The position numbers were made by a program, and so were the translations under genes. The notes below the pieces were generated by a model that ran no database searches, had not been told where the DNA came from, and worked only from the letters and a program-made list of their open reading frames with translations. From Escherichia coli (GTDB lineage: Bacteria > Pseudomonadota > Gammaproteobacteria > Enterobacterales > Enterobacteriaceae), in the NCBI RefSeq assembly GCF_001677475.2, contig NZ_CP015229.1: DNA of 64,000 bases; one strand, written 5' to 3'. This document shows, one piece after another, positions 48,055 to 63,329 of this stretch; position 1 is the stretch's first letter; each line of letters begins with the position of its first letter.

Positions 48055-51000
48055 ATGGAAGAGGCATTCTGGGCGGCAAGGCAGGGTGATGCCCTGCTGC
48101 ATACGTCGTTTATGGCAGATGTGCTGGGGGCAGTTGTAGAGGTTGCCGCCACAGCCCTGGTGGATGTTCTGGTTGTCGGAACCATGGCGGCGCTGGGCGG
48201 AGTTGAAGTGGCAACGCTGGGCTGCTCAACCATTTTAGCGATCGGTATAGCAACAGCGGTATTTATGTCGTATCAGGGCTGGAATGACCGAATCAGTAGG
48301 GAAAGTGAGCAACTGGCGAACTGGCTTTTCCCGCCTCAGATTGAAGGTTACATCCTCACCGGCTCTGGCGACACATGGATCAACAGCAAACCTGCCGCGC
48401 GGGCCGCGGCGACTGCGGCATCGCGGCAGGACATTGAGGCGCAGGAGGCGCAGGCGAAGGCGGAACAGGAAGAAGCGCAGCGTCAGGAGGATGCCAGAAC
48501 GTTCCTGGATGTGGCCGGGGAATATCTGGAAATGGCGGGGGCCATAGCCCTGGCGGTTAACCCGGTGACAGGGCCTGTGCTGATGTCCCGGGCGCTGCAC
48601 GACCAGCTCAGTACGGAAGAAGGGCGTTCTGAAATGGTGGATGGCGTGACACATTTTGTGTCGGAACTATGGCAGCCCACCGTGGCCAGTGCGGCCCCGG
48701 GCTCCACCCCGACCCCTGACGATAAAATCGACTGCCATAAACATCCCTCCTCACTGACGCAGTTTCTCGCACAAAAAAAAGCCGCCTTTCTGGATGACCC
48801 CCTGGGAACGGCCCTTAACCTGCTGAGTCCGGGCGGTATGCTGGAAACCGCCTTTCAGGGAGTGAATGCGGTTATTGGCAGCATCAGTAATCTGTTCAAA
48901 GGCGATGATGAACCGCCCGCAGCGGAATATATCGCGGAAGGCGCGCGGGATGTGCGTATCAACAGCCAGCCGGCGGCACGCAGCGGGGCACGCTGCACCT
49001 GCGAGGCCAGGGTGGTGAATGAGCCGGGGAACGGGGCGTTTGTGTCACCGGATGTCCGCATTGGCGGTCCGTTACTGGTGGTCAGGGATATCAGAAGCGG
49101 CAGGTCGCAGATAACCCTGGTGGCAACCGTGGCGCTGATGTTTCTTCGCCCGGGCAAAATGCTTTCTAAAATCGCCTGTTTTGCTGCCAGTGTCGGGATG
49201 GGGGTGATGACGCAGAAGGCCATCAGTGCCCTTCCGCATCCGGTCAATGCCGCCACCGGAGCCAAATATCTGGCCGATGACGATGATTTTGACTTCAGTC
49301 TGCCGGGCCACTTTCCGCTGGACTGGCAGCGCGTGTACAGCAGTCGTGACGACCGCACGGAAGGGATGTTCGGGCAGGGCTGGAGTGTAATGTATGAAGT
49401 CAGCCTCGAGCGCACGCCGGGTACTGCTGACGAAAACTGTATGACCTTTGTGTCGGGCATGGGACGACGTCTGGATATGGAGGCCGTGCTGCCGGGGAGC
49501 GGGTTTTACAGCCCCGGCGAAGGACTGGCAGTACGGCGGGGTGAGCAGGGGCACTGGCTTATCAGCAGCGATGACGGGCAGTTTTTTCTGTTTGAGGCCG
49601 ACCCGCGTCACCCGCAGCGCCAGCGGCTGAAAATGCTGGGCGACCGCAACAGCAACTGTCTGAATCTGTACTACGACGAGCTGGGGCGCATCACGCAAAT
49701 CAGCGGTGAACAGCAGCGTCCGTGCATCCGTCTGCATTATGAACTGGCGGCGCATCCCCGGCGGGTGACACAGATTTATCAGCATTTCCCTGAGATGGCT
49801 CCTTTACTGCTGCGTCGTTACCGCTATGACGAGGCCGGCGACCTGAACGGCGTGTACGACAGCACGGGGCACCTGCTGCGCGAGTTTGCTTACGACGAAA
49901 ACCACTGCATGACCCTGCACCGCCAGCCGGGCGGCGAAGGGTATTATTACCAGTGGGGCTGGTATGAAGGCCCGGATGACGCAGCGTGGCGGGTGACGGG
50001 GCACCACACGGACAGCGGTGAACAGTACCGGCTGGCGTGGAGCCTGGCGGCACGCAGGCTGTGCGTGACGGACGGGCTGGGGCGCACGCGTTATCATCAG
50101 TGGGACGCGCAAAATCAGGTGACGGCGTACCAGGACGAAGCCGGGCAGGTGACGACGTTCCGCTGGAGCGACGAAGAACGGCTGTTACTGGGAATGACCG
50201 ATGCGCAGGGCGGCAAATGGCGCTATGTGTATGACCGGCAGGGGCATATCACGGAGACGCACGACCCGCTGGGGCGGGTGGCACAGACACAGTGGCACCC
50301 GGTGTGGCACCAGCCGGAAACGGAGGTGGACGCGGCGGGGAACAGCTGGTGCTGTGAGTACGATGAACGCGGCAATCTTCTTGCGGTGACCGACCCGCTG
50401 CAGCAGAACACCCGGTATCAGTATGACCGCCACGGCCAGGTGGTGCAGATAACGGATGCGCGCGGGGGGAATAAATACCTTCAGTGGAACGAAGACGGGC
50501 AGCTCATGCGGCACACGGACTGTTCCGGCTCGCAGACGGCCTGGTTCTACGACGAACGCACGCGGCTGATACGGATGACAGACGCGCAGAGCCACAGCAC
50601 GCGCTACGGGTATGACGACAGCGGCCACCTGACGGAGGTGATACTGGCGGACGGCCGCACGGTGAATTACCAGTCGGACGCGGCGGGCAGGCTGGTGAAG
50701 TACACCAGCCCGATGGGGAGGATAACGCGCTGGCAGCGGGACGGGCAGGGCCGGGTGCGCAGCCGGACAGACGCGACGGGGCGCAGGACGGCGTTCGGGT
50801 ACGATGCCTACGGGCGTCTGGTCACGCTCACGAACGAGAACGGAGAAAGCTACCGGTTCCGCCATGACGTGCTGGACCGTCTGGCGGAGCAGATAAATCC
50901 GGACGGCTGCCGCCAGACGTACCGCTACAACGCGCTGAACGCGGTCACGGAAGTGGTGTTCACCGGGGACCGGGGCGGTGAAATCCGCCACCGGCTGGCA

Positions 51001-52737
51001 CGTGATGCGGCGGGCCGGCTCACGGCAAAGGAGACAGCCGATGGCCATACGGAATACGTCCATGATGCGGCAGACCAGCTACTGGAAATCCGCCGCCGAC
51101 GGTCGGATGCCGGGGAAACAGACGCACCGGAGATTATCCGTTTCAGTTACGACAGACTGGGGCGGATGCTGACCGAGGAGACGGCGCAGGGCGTCCTGAC
51201 CCATCAGTACGATGAACTCAGCAACCGGACAGCCACCACCTTTCCGGATGGCAGAACGCAGCGTCATCTGTACTACGGCAGCGGCCATCTCCAGCAGATA
51301 AATCTGGACCGGGAGGTCATCAGCGAGTTCACACGTGACGCCCTGCACCGGGAAGTGCTCAGAAGTCAGGGGCGACTGAGCACGCGGCAGCTTTATGACC
51401 CCGCCGGGCGGCTGAAGCGCAGGGAGACATACAGCGGGATGCGCGGGGTGGTACCGGAGACGTTCACGGACCGGCAGTACAGCTACAGCGGCGAGGATGA
51501 ATTGCTGAAGACGCGGCACAGCCGGCGGGGGGAAACGGATTACTTCTACGACCCCACGGGGCGCATCACGGCGTGCCGCTCGGAGGATGAGAGGTATCTG
51601 GCGAGCTGGCAGTACGACGCGGCGGGAAACCTGCTGGGGAGGCGCGCGGGGGAAAGGGCCACGGCAGAAAACAGCGTGGTGCCGTTCAACCGGCTGATGT
51701 CTTACCGTGGTGTGCACTACCGTTATGACGAATTTGGCCGGACGGTGGAAAAGGAGGGCCGGAGCGGCACGCAGAGTTACCGTTATGATGCGGAACACCG
51801 GATGGTGGAAGTGACGACAGCGCGGGGGACATACCGGTATGTGTACGATGCGCTGGGGAGGCGGACGGAAAAACAGCACATCAGCCCTGACGGTAAACCG
51901 TACAACCGGACGACATTTTTATGGGACGGAATGCGGCTGGCGCAGGAGAGCAGGCCGGAGGGAATAAGCAGCCTGTATATCTACAGCGACCCGGGGAGTT
52001 ATGAACCGCTGGCGCGGGTGGATAAGGCGGGCAAAGAGGGCCCGAACCGGATACTGTATTTTCACACGGATGTGAACGGTGCGCCGGAAGAGATGACGGA
52101 CAGTGACGGGAAAATCGTGTGGGAGACGGGGTATCAGGTCTGGGGTAACACGATACAGGAGAAGGACCACGGCGGGGTGGAGCAGAACCTGCGCTACCAG
52201 GGACAGTACCTCGACAGGGAAACGGGGCTGCATTACAATCTGCACAGGTACTATGATCCGGATGTCGGGCGGTTCATGGTAACGGACCCGATAGGGCTGG
52301 CGGGGGGACTGAATCTTTACCAATACTCACCGAATCCAATAAGTTGGATCGACCCGCTGGGATTAACAGGGGAGTGGGTTAATCCCAAAGATATTAATTT
52401 TTCTCAAAGAACAATATCACCTCATGATTATGCCGATATTATGCGTAATGGTGGTTGGGATTGGGACAGGTCTCCATTAAGAGTAATTGATATTGATGGG
52501 CAATTAGTTTCTTATGATAATAGGCGATTAGACGCAGCTCTAGAGGCCGGATTAGATAAGGTTAAAGTCATTAGAGTTGACCCTAATGCTCCTCATCCTG
52601 ACTCATCTACTGGAAAAACATGGTTACAAAAATTCCGAGAGAGATTTAGAGATCGAAGAAATATAAAGGCCGGTGGAATAGTACCAGATAAAGGATTAAA
52701 TTCTCGACCGGAAAGAACATCAAGAGGTTGCAAATGA
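48055..52737 (+). CDS. Rhs-family polymorphic toxin with prePAAR motif, N-terminal TM segments, PAAR motif, YD-repeat shell and variable C-terminal toxin domain
   Basis: 1560-aa ORF; N-terminus MEEAFWAARQGDALLH fits AARxxDxxxH; hydrophobic segments at residues ~20-70; SKPAARA PAAR motif; many YD repeats; [27 protein letters not shown] demarcation before a unique ~130-aa tip. Confidence 0.85.
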   Translation: MEEAFWAARQGDALLHTSFMADVLGAVVEVAATALVDVLVVGTMAALGGVEVATLGCSTILAIGIATAVFMSYQGWNDRISRESEQLANWLFPPQIEGYILTGSGDTWINSKPAARAAATAASRQDIEAQEAQAKAEQEEAQRQEDARTFLDVAGEYLEMAGAIALAVNPVTGPVLMSRALHDQLSTEEGRSEMVDGVTHFVSELWQPTVASAAPGSTPTPDDKIDCHKHPSSLTQFLAQKKAAFLDDPLGTALNLLSPGGMLETAFQGVNAVIGSISNLFKGDDEPPAAEYIAEGARDVRINSQPAARSGARCTCEARVVNEPGNGAFVSPDVRIGGPLLVVRDIRSGRSQITLVATVALMFLRPGKMLSKIACFAASVGMGVMTQKAISALPHPVNAATGAKYLADDDDFDFSLPGHFPLDWQRVYSSRDDRTEGMFGQGWSVMYEVSLERTPGTADENCMTFVSGMGRRLDMEAVLPGSGFYSPGEGLAVRRGEQGHWLISSDDGQFFLFEADPRHPQRQRLKMLGDRNSNCLNLYYDELGRITQISGEQQRPCIRLHYELAAHPRRVTQIYQHFPEMAPLLLRRYRYDEAGDLNGVYDSTGHLLREFAYDENHCMTLHRQPGGEGYYYQWGWYEGPDDAAWRVTGHHTDSGEQYRLAWSLAARRLCVTDGLGRTRYHQWDAQNQVTAYQDEAGQVTTFRWSDEERLLLGMTDAQGGKWRYVYDRQGHITETHDPLGRVAQTQWHPVWHQPETEVDAAGNSWCCEYDERGNLLAVTDPLQQNTRYQYDRHGQVVQITDARGGNKYLQWNEDGQLMRHTDCSGSQTAWFYDERTRLIRMTDAQSHSTRYGYDDSGHLTEVILADGRTVNYQSDAAGRLVKYTSPMGRITRWQRDGQGRVRSRTDATGRRTAFGYDAYGRLVTLTNENGESYRFRHDVLDRLAEQINPDGCRQTYRYNALNAVTEVVFTGDRGGEIRHRLARDAAGRLTAKETADGHTEYVHDAADQLLEIRRRRSDAGETDAPEIIRFSYDRLGRMLTEETAQGVLTHQYDELSNRTATTFPDGRTQRHLYYGSGHLQQINLDREVISEFTRDALHREVLRSQGRLSTRQLYDPAGRLKRRETYSGMRGVVPETFTDRQYSYSGEDELLKTRHSRRGETDYFYDPTGRITACRSEDERYLASWQYDAAGNLLGRRAGERATAENSVVPFNRLMSYRGVHYRYDEFGRTVEKEGRSGTQSYRYDAEHRMVEVTTARGTYRYVYDALGRRTEKQHISPDGKPYNRTTFLWDGMRLAQESRPEGISSLYIYSDPGSYEPLARVDKAGKEGPNRILYFHTDVNGAPEEMTDSDGKIVWETGYQVWGNTIQEKDHGGVEQNLRYQGQYLDRETGLHYNLHRYYDPDVGRFMVTDPIGLAGGLNLYQYSPNPISWIDPLGLTGEWVNPKDINFSQRTISPHDYADIMRNGGWDWDRSPLRVIDIDGQLVSYDNRRLDAALEAGLDKVKVIRVDPNAPHPDSSTGKTWLQKFRERFRDRRNIKAGGIVPDKGLNSRPERTSRGCK

Positions 52738-53168
52738 AAAATATTATTCAGTTATGGGAAGATGGTTTATTACCGATAAAAGATGCTATTTACTTTTCTA
52801 ACGGTGAATCTTTCCTTTGTAAAATAACATCTTACCCTACTCCTTGTATTGAGAAAAATGGTGAGTTTGATTTCTCTGCCTTTTATGAAAAAAATAAAGA
52901 TGAAGTTACTGATATTGATAAGTCTAGAGAAGTTAAATTAGCGAATAATTGCTATTGTTGCATTGGAGAAGGTAGTTATGGTTCTGAAGGATTTATCGCA
53001 TATCTCGATGAAAATAAAAACTTAGTTTGGGTTCTTTATTCCGAAGAATCTAATCCATTTATTAATATAACTGAATATACATCTGATATTATTATAGTAG
53101 AATCAAGTTCTAATATTAGACTAAGAATAAATATAAACAATCCAGTGGATTTAGAATTGGCATTTTAA
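52734..53168 (+). CDS. Putative cognate immunity protein of the Rhs C-terminal toxin
   Basis: ATG overlaps the rhs TGA stop (ATGA); AT-rich 144-aa ORF directly downstream of a toxin tip. Confidence 0.6.
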   Translation: MKNIIQLWEDGLLPIKDAIYFSNGESFLCKITSYPTPCIEKNGEFDFSAFYEKNKDEVTDIDKSREVKLANNCYCCIGEGSYGSEGFIAYLDENKNLVWVLYSEESNPFINITEYTSDIIIVESSSNIRLRININNPVDLELAF

Positions 53169-53169
53169 A

Positions 53170-53211
53170 TAAAAAGCCGGGTGAAATTAAATCTTCCCGG
53201 CTTTTTTATTA
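53170..53211. terminator. Hairpin terminator (AAAGCCGGG-loop-CCCGGCTTTTTT), first of four copies of this motif
   Basis: Perfect GC stem flanked by A and T runs between the immunity gene and the convergent symE-like gene; similar hairpins at 57795-57835, 60412-60452 and 62816-62902. Confidence 0.7.
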
Positions 53212-53212
53212 T

Positions 53213-53542
53213 TTAACTCTCGTTCAGCACACTAAACATCCCGTTCCGCATCCCCTTAACCACCTGTTTAACCTGATAAAGTTCTTCCCGCAGCTCCTGC
53301 ACCTCGTCACTGTCAGCGATGATGGTCAGGTACCCCTCCGAAATCTTCACCGTGACACCCCGCCCGGTATCAAATCCCGCCTCAGCCAGCCAGTCGCCCT
53401 TGAGGTGCAGGCTGGGATGTTGTGAATAATACCGGGCTATACCTGTTGTGCGGTCCTGGTGGCGGGTTCTGACATAGCCGACTTTATAGCGGCGCTGGGT
53501 TTTGGAAATGGTGACTTCTGGCGTAATATCGTGTTCAGCCAT
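53213..53542 (-). CDS. SymE-like protein (type I toxin family, AbrB/MazE-like fold), full-length copy
   Basis: 109-aa ORF; core HLKGDWLAEAGFDTGRGVTVKISEGYLTII resembles SymE KGxWLxxAGFxxGxxVxV motif as recalled. Confidence 0.6.
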   Translation of the reverse strand: MAEHDITPEVTISKTQRRYKVGYVRTRHQDRTTGIARYYSQHPSLHLKGDWLAEAGFDTGRGVTVKISEGYLTIIADSDEVQELREELYQVKQVVKGMRNGMFSVLNES

Positions 53543-53781
53543 GATTAACTACTCCTGTTAGTTGCTTGTGGTGAGCGGCTGTTACAGGCGGCAACCTGTA
53601 GCAGTCGCGTTAAATATCAACGCATTACCTTCATTACCTGCTTCATCTTCTCCTGGGTGATCGCCATATCCAGAATACGGCAGATCACTTCCTGATCGTC
53701 TGCTTTAAGCTCATCAACCTGCTTACACAGTTCTTTTAACCGCTTGTTTTTTATATCGAAAACATCGCGGAAGAAGAAGGT

Positions 53782-54861
53782 GTGCGCCAGGCGGCCTACG
53801 CGCTCAAGCTGTTGCAGTCGGACGGGGAACTGACCATCGCCAGTACGGGCAAGGATGACGCCAGCGGTAACCTGGTCACCAAACAGTATACGGTGAAAGG
53901 CCCGGTGATGCTGATGCTGACCACCACCGCCATCGATGTTGACGAGGAGTTACTCAACCGCTGTCTGGTGCTGACGGTGAACGAATCGCGGGAACAGACG
54001 GAAGCTATCCACGCGGCGCAGCGTTACGCGCAGACGCTGGAAGGACTGCTGGCGGCTAACGAAAAAAGTTACATCACGCAGCTTCACCAGAACGCGCAGC
54101 GGCTGCTGCGCCCGCTCAACGTGGTGAACCCGTTCGCCTCGCAGCTCACGTTCATGAGCGACAAAACCCGCACCCGGCGCGACCACATGAAATACCTGAC
54201 GCTGATCCAGGCGATCGCCCTGCTGCACCAGTACCAGCGGGAGATCAAGCGCGTGGAGCATCGCGGGCAGGTGGTGGAGTACATCGAGGTCACGCGGGAG
54301 GACATCGCCCTGGCGAACCGCCTGGCACATGAAATACTCGGGCGCACCCTGGATGAAATGCCGCCGCAGACGCGCAAACTGTTAACCCTGATCCAGCAAT
54401 GGGTGAGCGACAGCGGTCAGGCGCGTGAGGCGATGCGGTTCACCCGTAAACAACTGCGTGACGCGGTACAGTGGGGCGACACGCAGCTCAAGATCCACCT
54501 GGCGCGGCTGGTCGAAATGGAATATCTGCTGGTCCACCGTCTCGGGCTGACGTTCTGCTATGAACTGCTGTTCGACGGGGACGGCAGCGCAGACACCGCG
54601 CACCTGTGCGGGCTGATCGACGTACCGGAACCACCGTATGACGTCGCCCGGTCGGGGGAAACGGTGAAGCAGCTGGCCTCTGGTCGGGCAGTGGTCGGCG
54701 GTCAGTCGGGTAAGGAAAAAACCGCCTCAGACCAGACACCACGAGGCTTACAGGCCGGAGCGGTCGGGGCAGAGGAAAAAGCCCTGTTCCGGCAGAACGC
54801 AAAAAAACCGTCCCGCAATCATACTGCGGCCCGTCCGGGCCGGAGCAACACGGAAGCATAA
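53782..54861 (+). CDS. Hypothetical protein, apparently 5'-truncated (no ATG; frame closed by TAA just upstream); function unknown
   Basis: 1080-nt open frame in GC-rich DNA, far longer than the overlapping opposite-strand ORFs; no family recognised. Confidence 0.35.
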   Translation: MRQAAYALKLLQSDGELTIASTGKDDASGNLVTKQYTVKGPVMLMLTTTAIDVDEELLNRCLVLTVNESREQTEAIHAAQRYAQTLEGLLAANEKSYITQLHQNAQRLLRPLNVVNPFASQLTFMSDKTRTRRDHMKYLTLIQAIALLHQYQREIKRVEHRGQVVEYIEVTREDIALANRLAHEILGRTLDEMPPQTRKLLTLIQQWVSDSGQAREAMRFTRKQLRDAVQWGDTQLKIHLARLVEMEYLLVHRLGLTFCYELLFDGDGSADTAHLCGLIDVPEPPYDVARSGETVKQLASGRAVVGGQSGKEKTASDQTPRGLQAGAVGAEEKALFRQNAKKPSRNHTAARPGRSNTEA

Positions 54862-55065
54862 GTACGACTTCATCCGGTCGGGGCAACGGCTGCAATAGTC
54901 GGCCCCTGGTCGGCAGTCAGTCGGCGGGTAGTCGGGGTGCGTAAAACCCCCGCAGGCCGCGCCCGGCAAGGTTCAGGCCATGAAGCGGTCGGCCTGCCTG
55001 AAAATCACTGTTCCATCCTCTGTTCTTCTCTCTGTCGTACCGTAATCTCAATCAGGACAATCATC

Positions 55066-56095
55066 ATGACAAAACCCATCCCTCCGGGGCCGGAGGAACT
55101 TTACCTCAGCCGCCAGAACCTGACGCAGCGCCAGTATGTGGTGGTGTGGCTGGAATACCTGACGGCACAGAACTACAGCGCGATCAGCGTAAGCGACTAT
55201 CGCGAACGGGTGTTACCGTTCGTGACATGGTGTGAGGAGCGCGGGCTGATGTACGCGCCGCAGGTCAGCCAGCCGCAGCTTGAAAGCTATCAGCGCCACC
55301 TTCACGGCTACCGTAAGGCGGACGGCCATCCGCTGGCGGTCAGCGGTCAGGTGGGCCGGATAAGCGCGATAAAAATCTTTTACCGCTGGCTGCTGAAGCG
55401 GCATGTGATCCTGTACAACCCCGCCGATCTGCTGGAACTGCCAAAGCCGGACAAACGGCTTCCGGCGCAGGTGTTCAGTAAGGGCGAGACGCGGCAGGTG
55501 TTACAGAGCCTTGATATCAACACGCCCGTTGGCCTGCGCAACCGGACAATCCTTGAGGTGCTGTGGAGTACCGGGATCAGGCGGATGGAGCTGGCCAGCC
55601 TGATGTTGTGGGATGTTGACACCGGGCGCGGTGTGGTTAACGTGCGGCAGGGTAAGGGGCGTAAGGATCGGGTGGTTCCGGTGGGCCATGTGGCGCTGGG
55701 ATGGCTGGCAAGACGTGCGACCACAGATGACGCGCCAGCGCGACAGTGGTCATCTGTTCGTGACGAAATACGGCAGCGGGATGAAACGCAACACGCTGAC
55801 GGCGATGGCAGGCACCGCGATCCGGGAAACGGCACGGATCGACAAACCGGGCGCGTGCCATATCTTCCGGCACTCGATGGCGACGCAGATGCTGGACAAT
55901 GGCGCAGACACGCGGCATATCCAGGCGATCCTCGGCCATGAGAAGCTGGAGACGACGCAGATCTACACGAAGGTGGCCATAAAGCCGTTGCAGAAGGTTC
56001 ATGCGCGGACGCACCCGGCAGAGAAGCGGCGAAGGGAAAAGCGCGTGCAGCAGCCGGACGAGGCCACCGTATCGCCGGACAGCCTGAAAAGTTAG
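55066..56095 (+). pseudogene. Tyrosine recombinase (phage-integrase family) with frameshift
   Basis: N-terminal SAM-like domain in one frame to ~55710 ([13 protein letters not shown]), catalytic domain ([16 protein letters not shown]...[13 protein letters not shown]...[13 protein letters not shown]) in the other frame from ~55700; single indel inferred. Confidence 0.65.
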
Positions 56096-57005
56096 GTGGC
56101 GATCCCTGTAAGGCCGTGGGGTGCGGTGCAGGGCAGACAACCGCCTTCCCTGGCGGTTGACTGCCCCCTGCCAGCGGCGTGCGCGGGGGTAAATGCCGTC
56201 CGCCCCGTGGAGGCAGCCGCGCCCCATGCGACCATGCAGCACGGGGCAAACGTCATTCAACATAATGCGGATTATGCGCACTCTCGCCGGTCGGCAATGA
56301 CGGCGAACCCGATCCGCTGTGCGCGGCTCGTGTTCGCACAATCCGCATTATGTCTGACGCCCCCGCGTTCAGCCCCGTGGTCCGTGCAGCGCAAAGCTTC
56401 GCTGGCGCTCCGCTCTGCTGCCGGGTGCGGTGTTCTTCTGTGGCCCCGCAGTCGCCGCCATCCCTGGCGGCTCCGGTGCCGTTCTGCGGCAGCGTCATCG
56501 TGTGGCAGTCAGTCAGAAAAGGGTGTCGGCCTGGCGGCCTCCGCTTGTAAGGGCTTTATGCCCGCCCGGCGTCGTCTGGCTGCGGCGGCTCGTGCCGCGC
56601 AAAAAGGCCGCGCGTCACTCGTTCCCGCCTCGCCAGCTTCCGCTGCCCGCCCCGGTCAGGTGTGGTCATGCAAAGGCAACCCCCGGTCAGGCAGCGGTGC
56701 CACAGAGCGCCGTTCCGTCGCTTGCGGACTCTCTGCCGCCCGCACCCGCAGACCCCGCGCCGTGGCCCCGCCATGCCGCCGGAGGCGTCCTGGCGGCCCC
56801 CCGTCACGGGGTGCCGGAAACGGACTTAGTGGAAAGCGGAATGACAGGCGGTGGTGGTGGTGCTATGGTGAGCGGGCGTGAAAATGCGCGTCGGGAAAGT
56901 CGGGTTAACGTGCTGTTAAATAAGTAAAAGGTGATAGCCGGGAAGCCAGAAACGGCGCGGGCGGTAGCGTGTTAAAAAGTGTGACCTGCACCGGATCGTT
57001 CCGAT

Positions 57006-57515
57006 GACCCGATAGGACTGCGGGGTGGATTAAATCTCTATCAATATGCGCCGAATCCGTTGAGCTATATTGATCCTCTTGGCCTTTGTAAATTAAGGGG
57101 AAGTAATGGGCGCTTCAGAAGTGCTCAGAATATTCAGGAAGAAATAGGCGGACTACCTAATTTTTCAGGGAAGACTCCAGGGCAAATACGACAAACTTTG
57201 CGTAATCGAGTTTATTCGTCGGTACAAGCGCATAGTGGTGGAGAGGTCTGGACAAAAGCATTACCTGACGGAAATACTGTTGCTGTGAGAATTGACCCGG
57301 CAAATCCTCGCTCACCTTCACATTATGCTGATGCTGTGCCTCATGCTCATATTGAAACAGTTCCAACGTCCAGTGTTTCTAATGGGAATTATCGCCCACG
57401 AGACGTGACTGGCAGGCATACTGCCACTGGTGGGATTTCTGACCGAGGAACGAATCCGAATCATAATGCTGATGTTCACATTCCAATGTCTCCGGGACGA
57501 TTCCCATATAATTAA
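57006..57515 (+). CDS. Orphan Rhs C-terminal toxin module (DPIGL homology patch plus toxin tip), no upstream core
   Basis: Frame opens with [28 protein letters not shown] then a unique ~140-aa domain; no ATG at the patch. Confidence 0.6.
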   Translation, partial: DPIGLRGGLNLYQYAPNPLSYIDPLGLCKLRGSNGRFRSAQNIQEEIGGLPNFSGKTPGQIRQTLRNRVYSSVQAHSGGEVWTKALPDGNTVAVRIDPANPRSPSHYADAVPHAHIETVPTSSVSNGNYRPRDVTGRHTATGGISDRGTNPNHNADVHIPMSPGRFPYN

Positions 57516-57526
57516 TGTGAGGTTTT

Positions 57527-57790
57527 ATGAATATCCGAAATCAATATAATGAAGCCTTAAATAAATTAGAAGTTGATGTTAATGATGGTTTAAGAGATTT
57601 AATAAACATATATTGTGTAGCTATTGATTCTTTTGAAAATGATATCGTTGACTCGATTGCTTTATACGTGATTGATATGGGAAATAAAGATACTTGTCGA
57701 TATCTACAAGAAATATTATCAGAGAATGAAGATCCTTATTTAGTAAAAGAATTTAATGCATGGATGAAAGAAATTAAGAAAAAATATTAA
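57527..57790 (+). CDS. Putative immunity protein for the orphan toxin at 57006-57515
   Basis: AT-rich 87-aa ORF 11 nt downstream of the toxin stop with RBS-like GAGG. Confidence 0.5.
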   Translation: MNIRNQYNEALNKLEVDVNDGLRDLINIYCVAIDSFENDIVDSIALYVIDMGNKDTCRYLQEILSENEDPYLVKEFNAWMKEIKKKY

Positions 57791-57836
57791 AATAAAAGCC
57801 GGGACGGTTATTAAATCTTCCCGGCTTTTTTATTAC

Positions 57837-58070
57837 TTAACTTTCGTTCAGCACACTAAACATCCCGTCACGCATTCCCTTAACCGCCTGTTTAACCAGA
57901 TAAAGTTCCCTGCGCAGTTCCTGTACTTCGTTGTTATCCGCAAGCAGGATCAGACATCCTTCCGAGATCTTCACGGTGACGCCCGTGCCGATCTCAAATC
58001 CCGCTTCTCTCAGCCATTTTGCGCTGATTTTGATTACCGGCGTGTCGCTGCGGTTGGGCAGATAACCCAC
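57837..58070 (-). CDS. SymE-like protein, short paralog (77 aa)
   Basis: KISAKWLREAGFEIGTGVTVKISEGCLILLADNNEVQELRRELY...; synonymous differences from copy 1 in this frame. Confidence 0.55.
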   Translation of the reverse strand: MGYLPNRSDTPVIKISAKWLREAGFEIGTGVTVKISEGCLILLADNNEVQELRRELYLVKQAVKGMRDGMFSVLNES

Positions 58071-58419: not shown

Positions 58420-59700
58420 CGCATTTTATGTTTAAAAATTGAGATATTCCTCATTACATAAAGCTGTTTTTTATTGCTTATACATGATCAAATACTCCTT
58501 ACATAATTAAGGAGAACAAAATGGAACTTAAAAAATTGATGGAACATATTTCTATTATCCCCGATTACAGACAAGCCTGGAAAGTGGAACATAAATTATC
58601 GGATATTCTACTGTTGACTATTTGTGCCGTTATTTCGGGTGCAGAAGGCTGGGAAGATATAGAGGATTTTGGGGAAACACATCTCGATTTTTTGAAGCAA
58701 TATGGTGATTTTGATAATGGTATTCCTGTTCACGATACCATTGCCAGAGTTGTATCCTGTATCAGTCCTGCAAAATTTCACGAGTGCTTTATTAACTGGA
58801 TGCGTGACTGCCATTCTTCAGATGATAAAGACGTCATCGCAATTGATGGAAAAACGCTCCGGCATTCTTATGACAAGAGTCGCCGCAGGGGAGCGATTCA
58901 TGTCATTAGTGCGTTCTCAACAATGCACAGTCTGGTCATCGGACAGATCAGGACGGATGAGAAATCAAATGAAATTACAGCTATCCCTGAACTTCTTAAC
59001 ATGCTGGATATTAAAGGAAAAATCATCACAACTGATGCGATGGGTTGCCAGAAAGATATTGCAGAGAAGATACAAAAACAGGGAGGTGATTATTTATTCG
59101 CTGTAAAAGGAAACCAGGGGCGGCTAAATAAAGCCTTTGAGGAAAAATTCCCACTGAAAGAATTAAATAATCCAGAGCATGACAGTTACGCAATTAGTGA
59201 AAAGAGTCACGGCAGAGAAGAAATCCGTCTTCACATTGTTTGCGATGTCCCTGATGAACTTATTGATTTCACGTTTGAATGGAAAGGACTGAAGAAATTA
59301 TGCGTGGCAGTCTCCTTTCGGTCAATAATAGCAGAACAAAAGAAAGAGCCAGAAATGACGGTCAGATATTATATCAGTTCTGCTGATTTAACCGCAGAGA
59401 AGTTCGCCACAGCAATCCGAAACCACTGGCACGTGGAGAATAAGCTGCACTGGCGTCTGGACGTGGTAATGAATGAAGACGACTGCAAAATAAGAAGAGG
59501 AAACGCCGCAGAATTATTTTCAGGGATACGGCACATCGCTATTAATATTTTAACGAATGATAAGGTATTCAAGGCAGGGTTAAGACGTAAGATGCGAAAA
59601 GCAGCCATGGACAGAAACTATCTCGCGTCAGTCCTTGCGGGGAGCGGGCTTTCGTAATCTTGCCCTGGGGGAAATCCAAAAAGTAAGCCTACATACGGTC
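58420..59700 (+). mobile_element. ISAs1-family (H-repeat) element; ends not precisely mapped
   Basis: Contains the 378-aa H-repeat-associated transposase ORF; boundaries approximate. Confidence 0.6.
58521..59657 (+). CDS. ISAs1-family transposase (H-repeat-associated protein, YhhI/YbfD-like)
   Basis: 378-aa ORF with typical H-rpt protein content; K-12 rhs loci carry homologues. Confidence 0.8.
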
Positions 59701-62828: not shown

Positions 62829-62880
62829 TTTGGACTGACCCCATAAAGTTGGACACCCAACTGATTAAGGTGCAGTCCAA
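62829..62880. mobile_element. Miniature inverted-repeat element resembling back-to-back IS3-family terminal repeats, inserted in a terminator loop
   Basis: TTGGACTGACCCCATAAAGTTGGACA ... CAGTCCAA; resembles the IS IR TGAACTGCACCCCAAATGTTGGACA at 1044; the other three hairpin copies lack this ~52-bp segment. Confidence 0.4.
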
Positions 62881-62902
62881 CATATTCCCGGCTTTTTATT
62901 AT

Positions 62903-63136
62903 TTAACTCTCGTTCAGTACACTAAATATCCCGTCACGCATACCCTTAACCACCTGTTTAACCTGATAAAGTTCCCTGCGCAGTTCCTGTACTTCGTTGT
63001 TATCTGCAAGCAGGATCTGGCAGCCTTCCGAGATCTTCACGGTAACGCCCGTGCCGATCTCAAATCCCGCTTCTCTCAGCCATTTTGCGCTGATTTTGAT
63101 TACCGGCGTGTCGCTGCGGTTGGGCAGATAACCCAC
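62903..63136 (-). CDS. SymE-like protein, short paralog (77 aa)
   Basis: Near-identical to the 57837-58070 copy. Confidence 0.55.
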   Translation of the reverse strand: MGYLPNRSDTPVIKISAKWLREAGFEIGTGVTVKISEGCQILLADNNEVQELRRELYQVKQVVKGMRDGIFSVLNES

Positions 63137-63329
63137 GGTACAGTGGCGCTGTGTTTTGGAAATGATATTTTTGTATTTAACCTGCTGATTAGATAGTAAA
63201 ATAAACTTCGTGCAGATAGCTTACTTTATCAGGGTGTGGCGGTAGCGTATGAACTATGATGCGGTGGTTTCAGGAATGTACGTACAAAATCGATAGTACG
63301 ATCCTCCAATCAGGTAGATTTGCTGCCCT

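Follow-up and report, generated by a model that had tools for sequence, protein, structure and literature searches.

The dif site of the XerC/XerD system has an 11-6-11 layout—two 11-bp arms around a 6-bp central region—with the canonical centre TGTATA, and it is cleaved at the borders of the central region (PMC2533119). In the attP site of CTXphi, two inverted dif-like sites lie 90 bp apart and form attP(+) only in single-stranded DNA (PMC4246890). The attC sites of integrons are recognised only when folded, extrahelical bases set the choice of strand, and the integrase IntI is a close relative of XerC and XerD (PMC4792948). The locus compared with these systems here lies in Escherichia coli (contig NZ_CP015229.1, assembly GCF_001677475.2), in a stretch of 64,000 nucleotides that was analysed as a whole and is referred to as the window. 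It features an inverted repeat directly downstream of a gene for an Xer-family tyrosine recombinase. This repeat is most likely the cognate recombination site of the recombinase encoded just upstream and is probably used in folded form, a reading to which we assign a probability of roughly 0.7.

The inverted repeat and its two core sites

The features on which this reading rests are the following.

54937–56095, plus strand: gene of an Xer-family tyrosine recombinase, a frameshifted pseudogene (tblastn places residues 1–235 and 221–326 in different frames)
56255–56282, unstranded: dif-like core site of the 5' arm, ATTCAACATAA / TGCGGA / TTATGCGCACT (11-6-11), recognised by its match to the dif arms
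56331–56358, unstranded: dif-like core site of the 3' arm, an inverted copy, TGTTCGCACAA / TCCGCA / TTATGTCTGAC, read from the sequence
56260–56353, minus strand: whole hairpin H3, with the outer stem ACATAATGC/GCATTATGT, a paired centre, the inner stem ATTATGCG/CGCACAAT and a branched variable loop at 56283–56330

As read from the sequence, the first arm of the repeat, ATAATGCGGATTATGCG, lies at 56262–56278 and the second, CGCACAATCCGCATTAT, at 56335–56351. The 17-nt arms are complementary at 16 of 17 positions, enclose a gap of 56 nt and begin 167 nt past the stop codon of the recombinase gene (56093–56095). A sequence-only reading of the window had described a 16/17 repeat of this kind about 170 bp past the stop codon; the repeat, its degree of pairing, its distance from the gene and the position of the second arm are all confirmed, the first arm had been placed one base too high (56263–56279), and the spacing had been given as 55 bp. 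With the repeat finder, the pairing grows to 30-nt arms (56260–56289 and 56324–56353) that are 83% complementary and 34 nt apart. The 104-nt hairpin stretch folds with −49.1 kcal/mol on the plus strand (z = −5.1) and with −55.4 kcal/mol on the minus strand (z = −5.8), and none of 200 dinucleotide shuffles is as stable on either strand. The secondary-structure prediction that the sequence-only reading had proposed as a check, hence, far exceeds the shuffled background on both strands. The surrounding region, 56096–57005, has a G+C content of 65–72%. Between close relatives, the part of the spacer at 56440–57000, downstream of the repeat, differs by three 1-nt indels, and of the 55 E. coli genomes with a complete spacer, nearly all have a blank NCBI annotation over the repeat region. 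Judged by these indels and by the empty annotation, the region 56096–57005 is without convincing coding capacity, as had been proposed, and is non-coding by the evidence at hand.

By its sequence anatomy, each arm of the hairpin is a 28-bp Xer-type core site. At both 56255–56282 and 56331–56358, two inverted arms of about 11 bp surround a centre of about 6 bp, and each site consists of two NNCATAAY-type half-sites flanking this roughly 6-bp central region. On the minus strand, 56255–56282 fits the arms of E. coli dif (GGTGCGCATAA-N6-TTATGTTAAAT) at 20 of 22 positions, i.e., with 2 mismatches, and with a 6-bp spacer. It is the sole match to the dif-arm pattern in the window, where 100 shuffles lead one to expect 0. 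The dif 28-mer used as reference is present in 5423 of 5426 complete E. coli genomes with a median of one copy per genome, and dif-like sites occur at 734 places on E. coli plasmids. The reverse complement of the 3' arm fits ACATAA-N6-TTATG with 1 mismatch, and both arms share the central region (TGCGGA, inverted as TCCGCA). The 3' flank GTCNGGCGCC is kept in most of the aligned beta- and gamma-proteobacterial copies. Within the central region of the 5' arm (56266–56271 in the window), the run of G is GG here and GGGGG or GGGGGG in the other E. coli copies compared (L002 9162–9259; L003 9162–9259 and 18011–18109). The window copy alone features the canonical 6-bp spacer of the 5' arm and a fully paired central region.

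Conservation and variation of the hairpin

Recombinase genes of this family are followed by H3 in E. coli, Citrobacter, Photorhabdus, Xenorhabdus, and Lonsdalea and, in addition, in loci of Pseudomonas nitritireducens, Rhodoferax, Sulfuritalea, Catenovulum, Cellvibrio, Arenicella, and Fluviicoccus. All enterobacterial loci with enough downstream sequence carry it, except for one with a deletion (L016). A covariance model, R1, built from 25 hairpin copies scores the window hairpin with 87.7 bits; this is its only plus-strand hit in the window, i.e., exactly one copy. Up to 6 places per E. coli genome hold a copy of the site. The distance from the recombinase gene varies—a DinJ-RelE pair intervenes in Lonsdalea and about 1030 nt in Catenovulum—and so does the size of the hairpin, which measures 62–135 nt in total owing to the loop, with arms 34–50 nt apart.

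The two parts of the stem behave differently. The outer half-sites ACATAAYG/CRTTATGT are nearly invariant, and their six outer pairs, ACATAA/TTATGT, never vary. The next three pairs and the inner half-site vary by lineage (TTATGCG, TTATACG, TTAAGCG, TTACGCG, or TTACCCR), and the two arms change together. In the alignment of 25 sequences, 92.2% of cells are paired and 11 of 19 pairs show changes on both sides, values reached by none of 500 shuffles; sliding the partner as a control yields 18–50% pairing. An invariant outer box fits recognition by a protein, and an inner box that drifts yet stays self-complementary fits base pairing or concerted evolution of both arms.

The spacer of the 3' arm is 6 nt long in nearly all homologues (7 nt in three copies), whereas that of the 5' arm measures 7–10 nt and bears a variable G run in every copy examined other than that of the window. 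Because the 5'-arm spacer is the longer one, the folded site nearly always carries unpaired extra bases, mostly on its 5' arm. Wobble mismatches are likewise asymmetric: A·C on the plus strand, equivalent to G·T on the minus strand, occurs in 22 cells versus 2 of the opposite kind, which we read as about a dozen independent changes versus two. Consensus folding gives −57.4 kcal/mol for the minus strand versus −46.9 kcal/mol for the plus strand. The extra bases on one arm and the wobble bias favour intrastrand pairing on one strand.

Two further hairpins precede H3.

56131–56166, unstranded: hairpin H1 (GGGCAG...CTGCCC), inverted repeat I15, with 15-nt arms that are 93% complementary
56192–56257, minus strand: hairpin H2, inverted repeat I9, which abuts H3 directly (RNAalifold on both strands)

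H1 is kept from E. coli to Xenorhabdus, with changes in the inner stem that preserve pairing, and is followed by the conserved linker CGCGGGGGTAAATG at 56182–56195. In the RNAalifold consensus of H2, many pairs are changed on both sides (AU/GC, GC/CG). H1, H2, and the dif-like hairpin form a three-hairpin cluster that moves as one unit. E. coli has two recombinase alleles with a DNA identity of only 68–70%, and these are combined with two hairpin types, a long one and a short one of 62 nt (L001, L002, L003, L086–L090).

Identity breakpoints and circular records

In two pairs of related copies, sequence identity breaks off at the hairpin. The two copies of Photorhabdus thracensis are 100% identical over 6761 bp up to and including ...ACATAATGTGGCATTA and then 74–88% identical for about 400 bp. 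The left limit of the identical block coincides with the start of an orphan Rhs core fragment, and its right limit falls within the 5' arm; inner boxes, loop, and 3' arm belong to the diverged, right-hand side. The copies of two Xenorhabdus species differ by 2 mismatches over the 450 nt that precede the hairpin on its left; divergence sets in at hairpin position +24, just past the inner box of the 5' arm. Both pairs look as expected after a crossover at the central region of the arm nearest to the gene, which suggests that exchange takes place there.

Two circular database records contain the module with an intact hairpin. The Shigella flexneri 'plasmid' record of 8758 bp (L080, NZ_CP055112.1) corresponds collinearly, at 98.1% identity, to exactly one tandem period of an E. 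coli array. The Lonsdalea populi 'plasmid' record of 11289 bp (L081, NZ_CP072857.1) holds the whole module: two tip/immunity/SymE/helix-turn-helix (HTH) modules, a full primase gene, the recombinase gene, the DinJ-RelE pair, the hairpin, and the spacer. Draft contigs of Lonsdalea stop about 28 nt past the RelE gene, which is consistent with a repeat and shows no circle. As judged by the two circular records, the module seems able to exist as a small circle.

Outside the Rhs locus, a fragment of the module was encountered in E. coli IH5 (L089, NZ_CP168949.1 4975414–4981313) beside a gene for a MobH-family relaxase, a setting that looks like an integrative conjugative element. This fragment comprises the C terminus of the recombinase, the hairpin, the spacer, the core-end, and a tip; its left end is a truncation within the recombinase gene and is uninformative on breakpoints. 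The phage collection yielded distant integrases only and, hence, no phage link. A pattern scan of IMG/VR gave 102 matches, of which 80 were fetched and scored with the model; the 1 true match lies in the same module on a fragment of an isolate genome.

Proposed mechanism and its weighing

In the proposed mechanism, one strand—most likely the minus strand—would fold such that pairing of the two sites gives one duplex-like site. This folded site would present the invariant outer box, a centre usually containing unpaired extra bases, the lineage-specific inner box, and the variable terminal loop. The recombinase would bind it and exchange strands at the central-region edge of the arm nearest to its gene. 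Recombination at the hairpin would then excise, re-insert, or reshuffle module units between Rhs toxin-tip cassettes; by joining or separating tandem units, the reaction would yield circles, to be replicated with the help of the primase protein. Binding and cleavage by the element's own recombinase, as well as the strand that is recombined, we infer from sequence. The folded-site part of the mechanism follows two precedents, XerC/XerD acting on the folded attP(+) of CTXphi and IntI acting on a folded attC of integrons.

That the repeat is a recombination site, as the sequence-only reading had suggested, is supported by the 20/22 match to the dif arms in an Xer-type layout, the adjacent Xer gene, the conservation with covariation across genera, and the identity breakpoints. 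Several observations weigh against it. No second copy of the site is present in the 64-kb window, as judged by two patterns and the covariance model, so the repeat gives no boundary for the far side of the GC-rich block. Of the two properties by which the sequence-only reading would have told a genuine site, conservation in homologous elements is observed, and a second copy bounding the element is absent from the window. About 30 loci that hold more distant members of the recombinase family give no hairpin hit with R1; two of them carry a simple ACATAA-N5-TTATGT palindrome instead. A by-eye look at the Rhs core-end sequence recognised no dif-like site. Gene conversion or template switching can also produce covariation between two inverted DNA copies, and a palindrome could in principle give rise to the two hairpin breakpoints as an artefact of recombination or replication. 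The clearest mosaic boundary in E. coli lies at the stop codon of the recombinase gene, with shared last codons, and not at the hairpin, so homologous recombination also shuffles modules. The circular records are real circles or may be assembler artefacts of tandem repeats. Finally, H1 features some plus-strand wobble pairs; the strand call is, therefore, not uniform and is moderate rather than firm.

A wider version of the recombination-site reading is possible and is put forward tentatively: the hairpin may be the attachment site of a self-contained folded-single-stranded-DNA system, in which an Xer-like recombinase acts on an attC-like hairpin with extrahelical bases and the primase turns an excised single-stranded circle into a replicating duplex. 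If this is true, the mobile units carry Rhs toxin tips and immunity genes, and the system would provide site-specific machinery for the 'C-terminal displacement' of Rhs proteins (Jackson et al.). It would, in addition, represent a living intermediate between recombination of the Xer/CTXphi type and of the integron type (cf. Escudero et al. (2016)).

Alternative explanations

The alternative that survives best, itself unlikely, takes the hairpin cluster for a replication signal—an origin or a single-strand initiation site for the DnaG-like primase—with a likeness to dif that is incidental or concerns H3 only. A gene for a replicative primase accompanies the site in nearly all loci of adequate length, the three adjacent covarying hairpins and the linker CGCGGGGGTAAATG resemble a structured single-stranded region, the strand bias suits a signal read on one strand, and the small circular records suggest a replicon in need of an origin. 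Parallels exist in the priming sites ssiA and ssiB of IncQ plasmids and in the minus-strand origins of filamentous phages. A 20/22 match to the dif arms in exact 11-6-11 geometry is, however, unexpected of a priming signal; moreover, the invariant part of H3 is an Xer half-site, and the breakpoints lie at the central-region side of one arm. Since H1 and H2 could be a priming signal while H3 is the recombination site, this explanation partly complements the recombination-site reading, and it is for H1–H2 that a priming or origin signal is most plausible.

A structured RNA had been the second option of the sequence-only reading and is improbable. It could be an antisense transcript of the minus strand, or else a terminator or 3' untranslated element within the recombinase mRNA. 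Such an RNA would account for the very stable fold, the covariation, and the mismatches that are compatible with G·U pairing on the minus strand. However, Rfam 15 gives no match over 56096–57000 (52000–58000 scanned, E-value up to 1), and the scan found neither a promoter nor a terminator-like T run at the site. The six invariant outer pairs coincide with Xer half-sites. With the DinJ-RelE pair of Lonsdalea or the roughly 1030 nt of Catenovulum between gene and hairpin, the hairpin is not a fixed 3' untranslated element.

Decidedly improbable, too, is that the site serves host XerC/XerD, be it in multimer resolution like cer or psi or in an integration that exploits Xer. The nearly canonical dif sequence of the 5' arm in the window and the frequency of dif-like sites on E. 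coli plasmids point in this direction. The 7–10-nt spacers in the 5' arms of all other copies examined are incompatible with the 6-bp spacing of dif, though, and in other genera the inner half-site departs from the XerC arm. The centre TGCGGA differs from the canonical TGTATA (PMC2533119), and the site travels with an Xer-like gene of its own.

A chance palindrome, or a dispersed repeat of the repetitive extragenic palindrome (REP) or miniature inverted-repeat transposable element (MITE) type without a link to the recombinase, is hardly credible: GC-rich intergenic DNA is often palindromic and many short inverted repeats are listed in the region, but the site is contradicted as such a repeat by its single copy in 64 kb and its linkage, in the loci examined, to one recombinase family across bacterial orders, and its shuffle z-scores of −5 to −6 and the lone true match among the 80 scored IMG/VR stretches, in the same module, speak against it as well.

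The recombinase–primase module

The recombinase gene of the window is preceded by a primase remnant.

53782–54861, plus strand: C-terminal remnant of about 360 aa of a DnaG-like primase of about 910–990 aa (tblastn: residues 612–971 only)

Intact homologues of the recombinase feature a Phage_integrase domain and a SAM-like N domain. The protein matches the 'XerC' subfamily NF002331 of NCBIfam (529 bits) and does not reach the thresholds set for genuine XerC, XerD, or integron integrase. Its closest solved structure is XerD (1a0p), with which it aligns end to end and without a large insertion in the catalytic domain. Intact E. coli copies of the primase contain a zinc ribbon, a Toprim domain, and a weak P-loop match. 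For the C-terminal part of about 590 aa (L003 4678–7641, residues ~400–988), no homologue beyond the weak P-loop is detectable in PDB, Pfam, or PHROGs; to call it a helicase or an origin-binding protein would be a guess. The HTH protein of the module resembles the RstR repressor family with 68 bits and does not reach the cut-off of 80.

The full module consists of the HTH gene, the DnaG-like primase, the Xer-like recombinase, the hairpin cluster H1–H3, the GC-rich spacer, an Rhs core-end fragment, and a toxin tip. In intact E. coli modules, the HTH gene lies on the minus strand and is followed by the primase of 910–990 aa, the 'XerC' of 351–369 aa, a stretch of about 950 bases without annotation, and the Rhs core-end fragment. 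These modules often occur in tandem, and every unit then brings a primase gene and a recombinase gene of its own. Among species-representative genomes, a protein-guided scan yielded 432 confirmed relatives of the recombinase across many phyla, and 76 recombinase loci were fetched from Enterobacterales, Pseudomonas, beta-proteobacteria, Planctomycetota, Acidobacteriota, Verrucomicrobiota, and Actinomycetota. Where the fetched sequence reaches far enough upstream, the primase gene almost always immediately precedes the recombinase gene, and an HTH gene often comes before the primase.

In the window, the HTH gene and the N-terminal ~610 aa of the primase are deleted, and the HTH query gives no tblastn hit there. 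By its truncated primase, lost HTH gene, and frameshifted recombinase, this module is a fossil, and the copy is probably inactive on its own. With all three genes affected, the site in the window could act only with a recombinase supplied in trans.

The Rhs locus and the spacer

The window locus is an Rhs locus beside kdp, whose kdpD shares 97.9% identity with that of E. coli. A full-length rhs gene (48055–52737) is followed by an immunity-like open reading frame (ORF) and a SymE-like gene, and the module lies between this gene and the next Rhs fragment.

53213–53542, minus strand: SymE-like type I toxin gene, left neighbour of the module, with overlapping matches to isrA, Ssr1, and SymR in Rfam
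56354–57005, unstranded: GC-rich (65–72%) conserved non-coding spacer from the hairpin to the Rhs core-end fragment, as judged by the GC profile and 1-nt indels
57006–57790, plus strand: short Rhs core-end fragment fused to an orphan toxin tip that extends to 57515, with a putative immunity ORF at 57527–57790

The DPxGL motif of the core-end fragment lies 910 nt past the recombinase stop codon in the window, with in-frame stop codons before it. In E. coli, Photorhabdus, and Xenorhabdus, the core-end motif lies about 900–960 nt past the recombinase stop codon, again with in-frame stops just before. The spacer itself (~650 nt, up to 72.5% GC) features blocks that are kept from E. coli to Photorhabdus and Xenorhabdus. 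Its consensus folding is weak (−30 kcal/mol on the plus strand and −53 kcal/mol on the minus strand over 881 columns), and cross-genus alignments are poor. The spacer could be an origin of replication or the home of accessory binding sites.

The junction between spacer and Rhs core is not fixed: most fragments begin at DPIGL, and some begin about 130 aa earlier (LWDGDVP...). The junction was compared at position 445 of both L007 and L008 and about 1280–1320 nt past the recombinase stop codon in L009, L011, and L012. Independent deletions in L016 and L082 end at this junction, which suggests a hot spot of joining. A SymE-like gene with isrA, Ssr1, and SymR matches ends each orphan Rhs module on the minus strand (53105–53611, 57760–58070, and also 62849–63196). 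In modules without a primase–recombinase block, other sequence takes the place of the SymE-like gene's 5' end, and only about 200 nt separate this gene from the next core-end fragment. After the next Rhs core-end fragment of the window, an intact transposase gene of the ISAs1 family (ISEc1/H-repeat type) lies at 58521–59657; the same is seen in several E. coli arrays.

Significance

Rhs proteins are major weapons of bacterial competition, and the swapping of their toxic tips is an open question. Exactly between the tip cassettes of Rhs loci, the module places a primase and an Xer-like recombinase together with the site of the latter. As far as its sequence goes, the site is an Xer-type site arranged as a self-pairing hairpin with a recombinase of its own, apparently undescribed: a literature search, with most subscription papers outside its reach, found no description of either module or site. 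Should a dedicated Xer-like enzyme use the site as a folded strand, only integrons and CTXphi would precede it as systems of this kind, and it would bear on the origin of integrons. The site offers a testable handle on binding, cleavage, strand preference, and circle formation. Because the window holds a decayed copy of the module, its own practical meaning is modest, and its value is that of a pointer to the family.

Comparison with known systems

XerS/difSL and XerH/difH consist of a single recombinase gene adjoining its site, as does the present module. The core of the site is similar to dif of XerC/XerD: 28 bp, two inverted arms of nearly the same sequence, and a 6-bp centre (PMC2533119). 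Unlike dif, it lies off the replication terminus, occurs in several copies, is duplicated in inverted orientation, and is part of a mobile module; a role in the resolution of chromosome dimers is implausible.

The pdif sites of Acinetobacter plasmids are inverted pairs of Xer-type sites tied to movable gene modules, as is the present pair (PMC10132070). A pdif pair flanks a cargo gene of at least 1 kb and is thought to use host XerC/XerD, whereas the present sites are 34–50 nt apart and pair with each other.

The CTXphi attP(+) resembles the hairpin in being an inverted dif-like pair that pairs with itself in one strand to yield a single Xer-type site with an imperfect centre (PMC4246890). Two inverted dif-like sites capable of self-pairing are also what is found here, and tandem arrays of integrated copies occur in both systems. 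The arms are 34–50 nt apart here versus 90 in CTXphi. CTXphi, a filamentous phage with a rolling-circle initiator, has no recombinase of its own and uses host XerC/XerD at the chromosomal dif; the present module brings along a DnaG-like primase and its own, single Xer-like recombinase, is devoid of phage genes, and lies in Rhs loci beside kdp and ybgA/phr and not at dif. An element of the CTX type is ruled out by the Xer-like gene in the module and by this location.

Integrons differ from the module in their genes. They line up promoterless cassettes behind one integrase, whereas each unit here carries its own recombinase and replication gene. The recombinase scores 124.5 bits against TIGR02249, below the cut-off of 265, unlike IntI, and the lack of a large insertion relative to XerD means that it has no I2-like helix. 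An integron is ruled out by these three points: no insertion relative to XerD, a score below the IntI cut-off, and one recombinase gene per unit. No attI-like partner site was seen for the hairpin, and its boxes are full Xer half-sites, unlike those of attC. The anatomy of the hairpin, by comparison, is that of attC: an imperfect palindrome with a conserved outer box and a variable, pairing inner box, extra bases on one arm, a variable loop, and a strand preference. Its outer 6 bp are invariant, its inner box covaries, and its 5' arm bears 1–4 extra bases in all copies except that of the window. The 5' flank of the site, ATTCAAC, fits the R'' consensus of attC, RYYYAAC.

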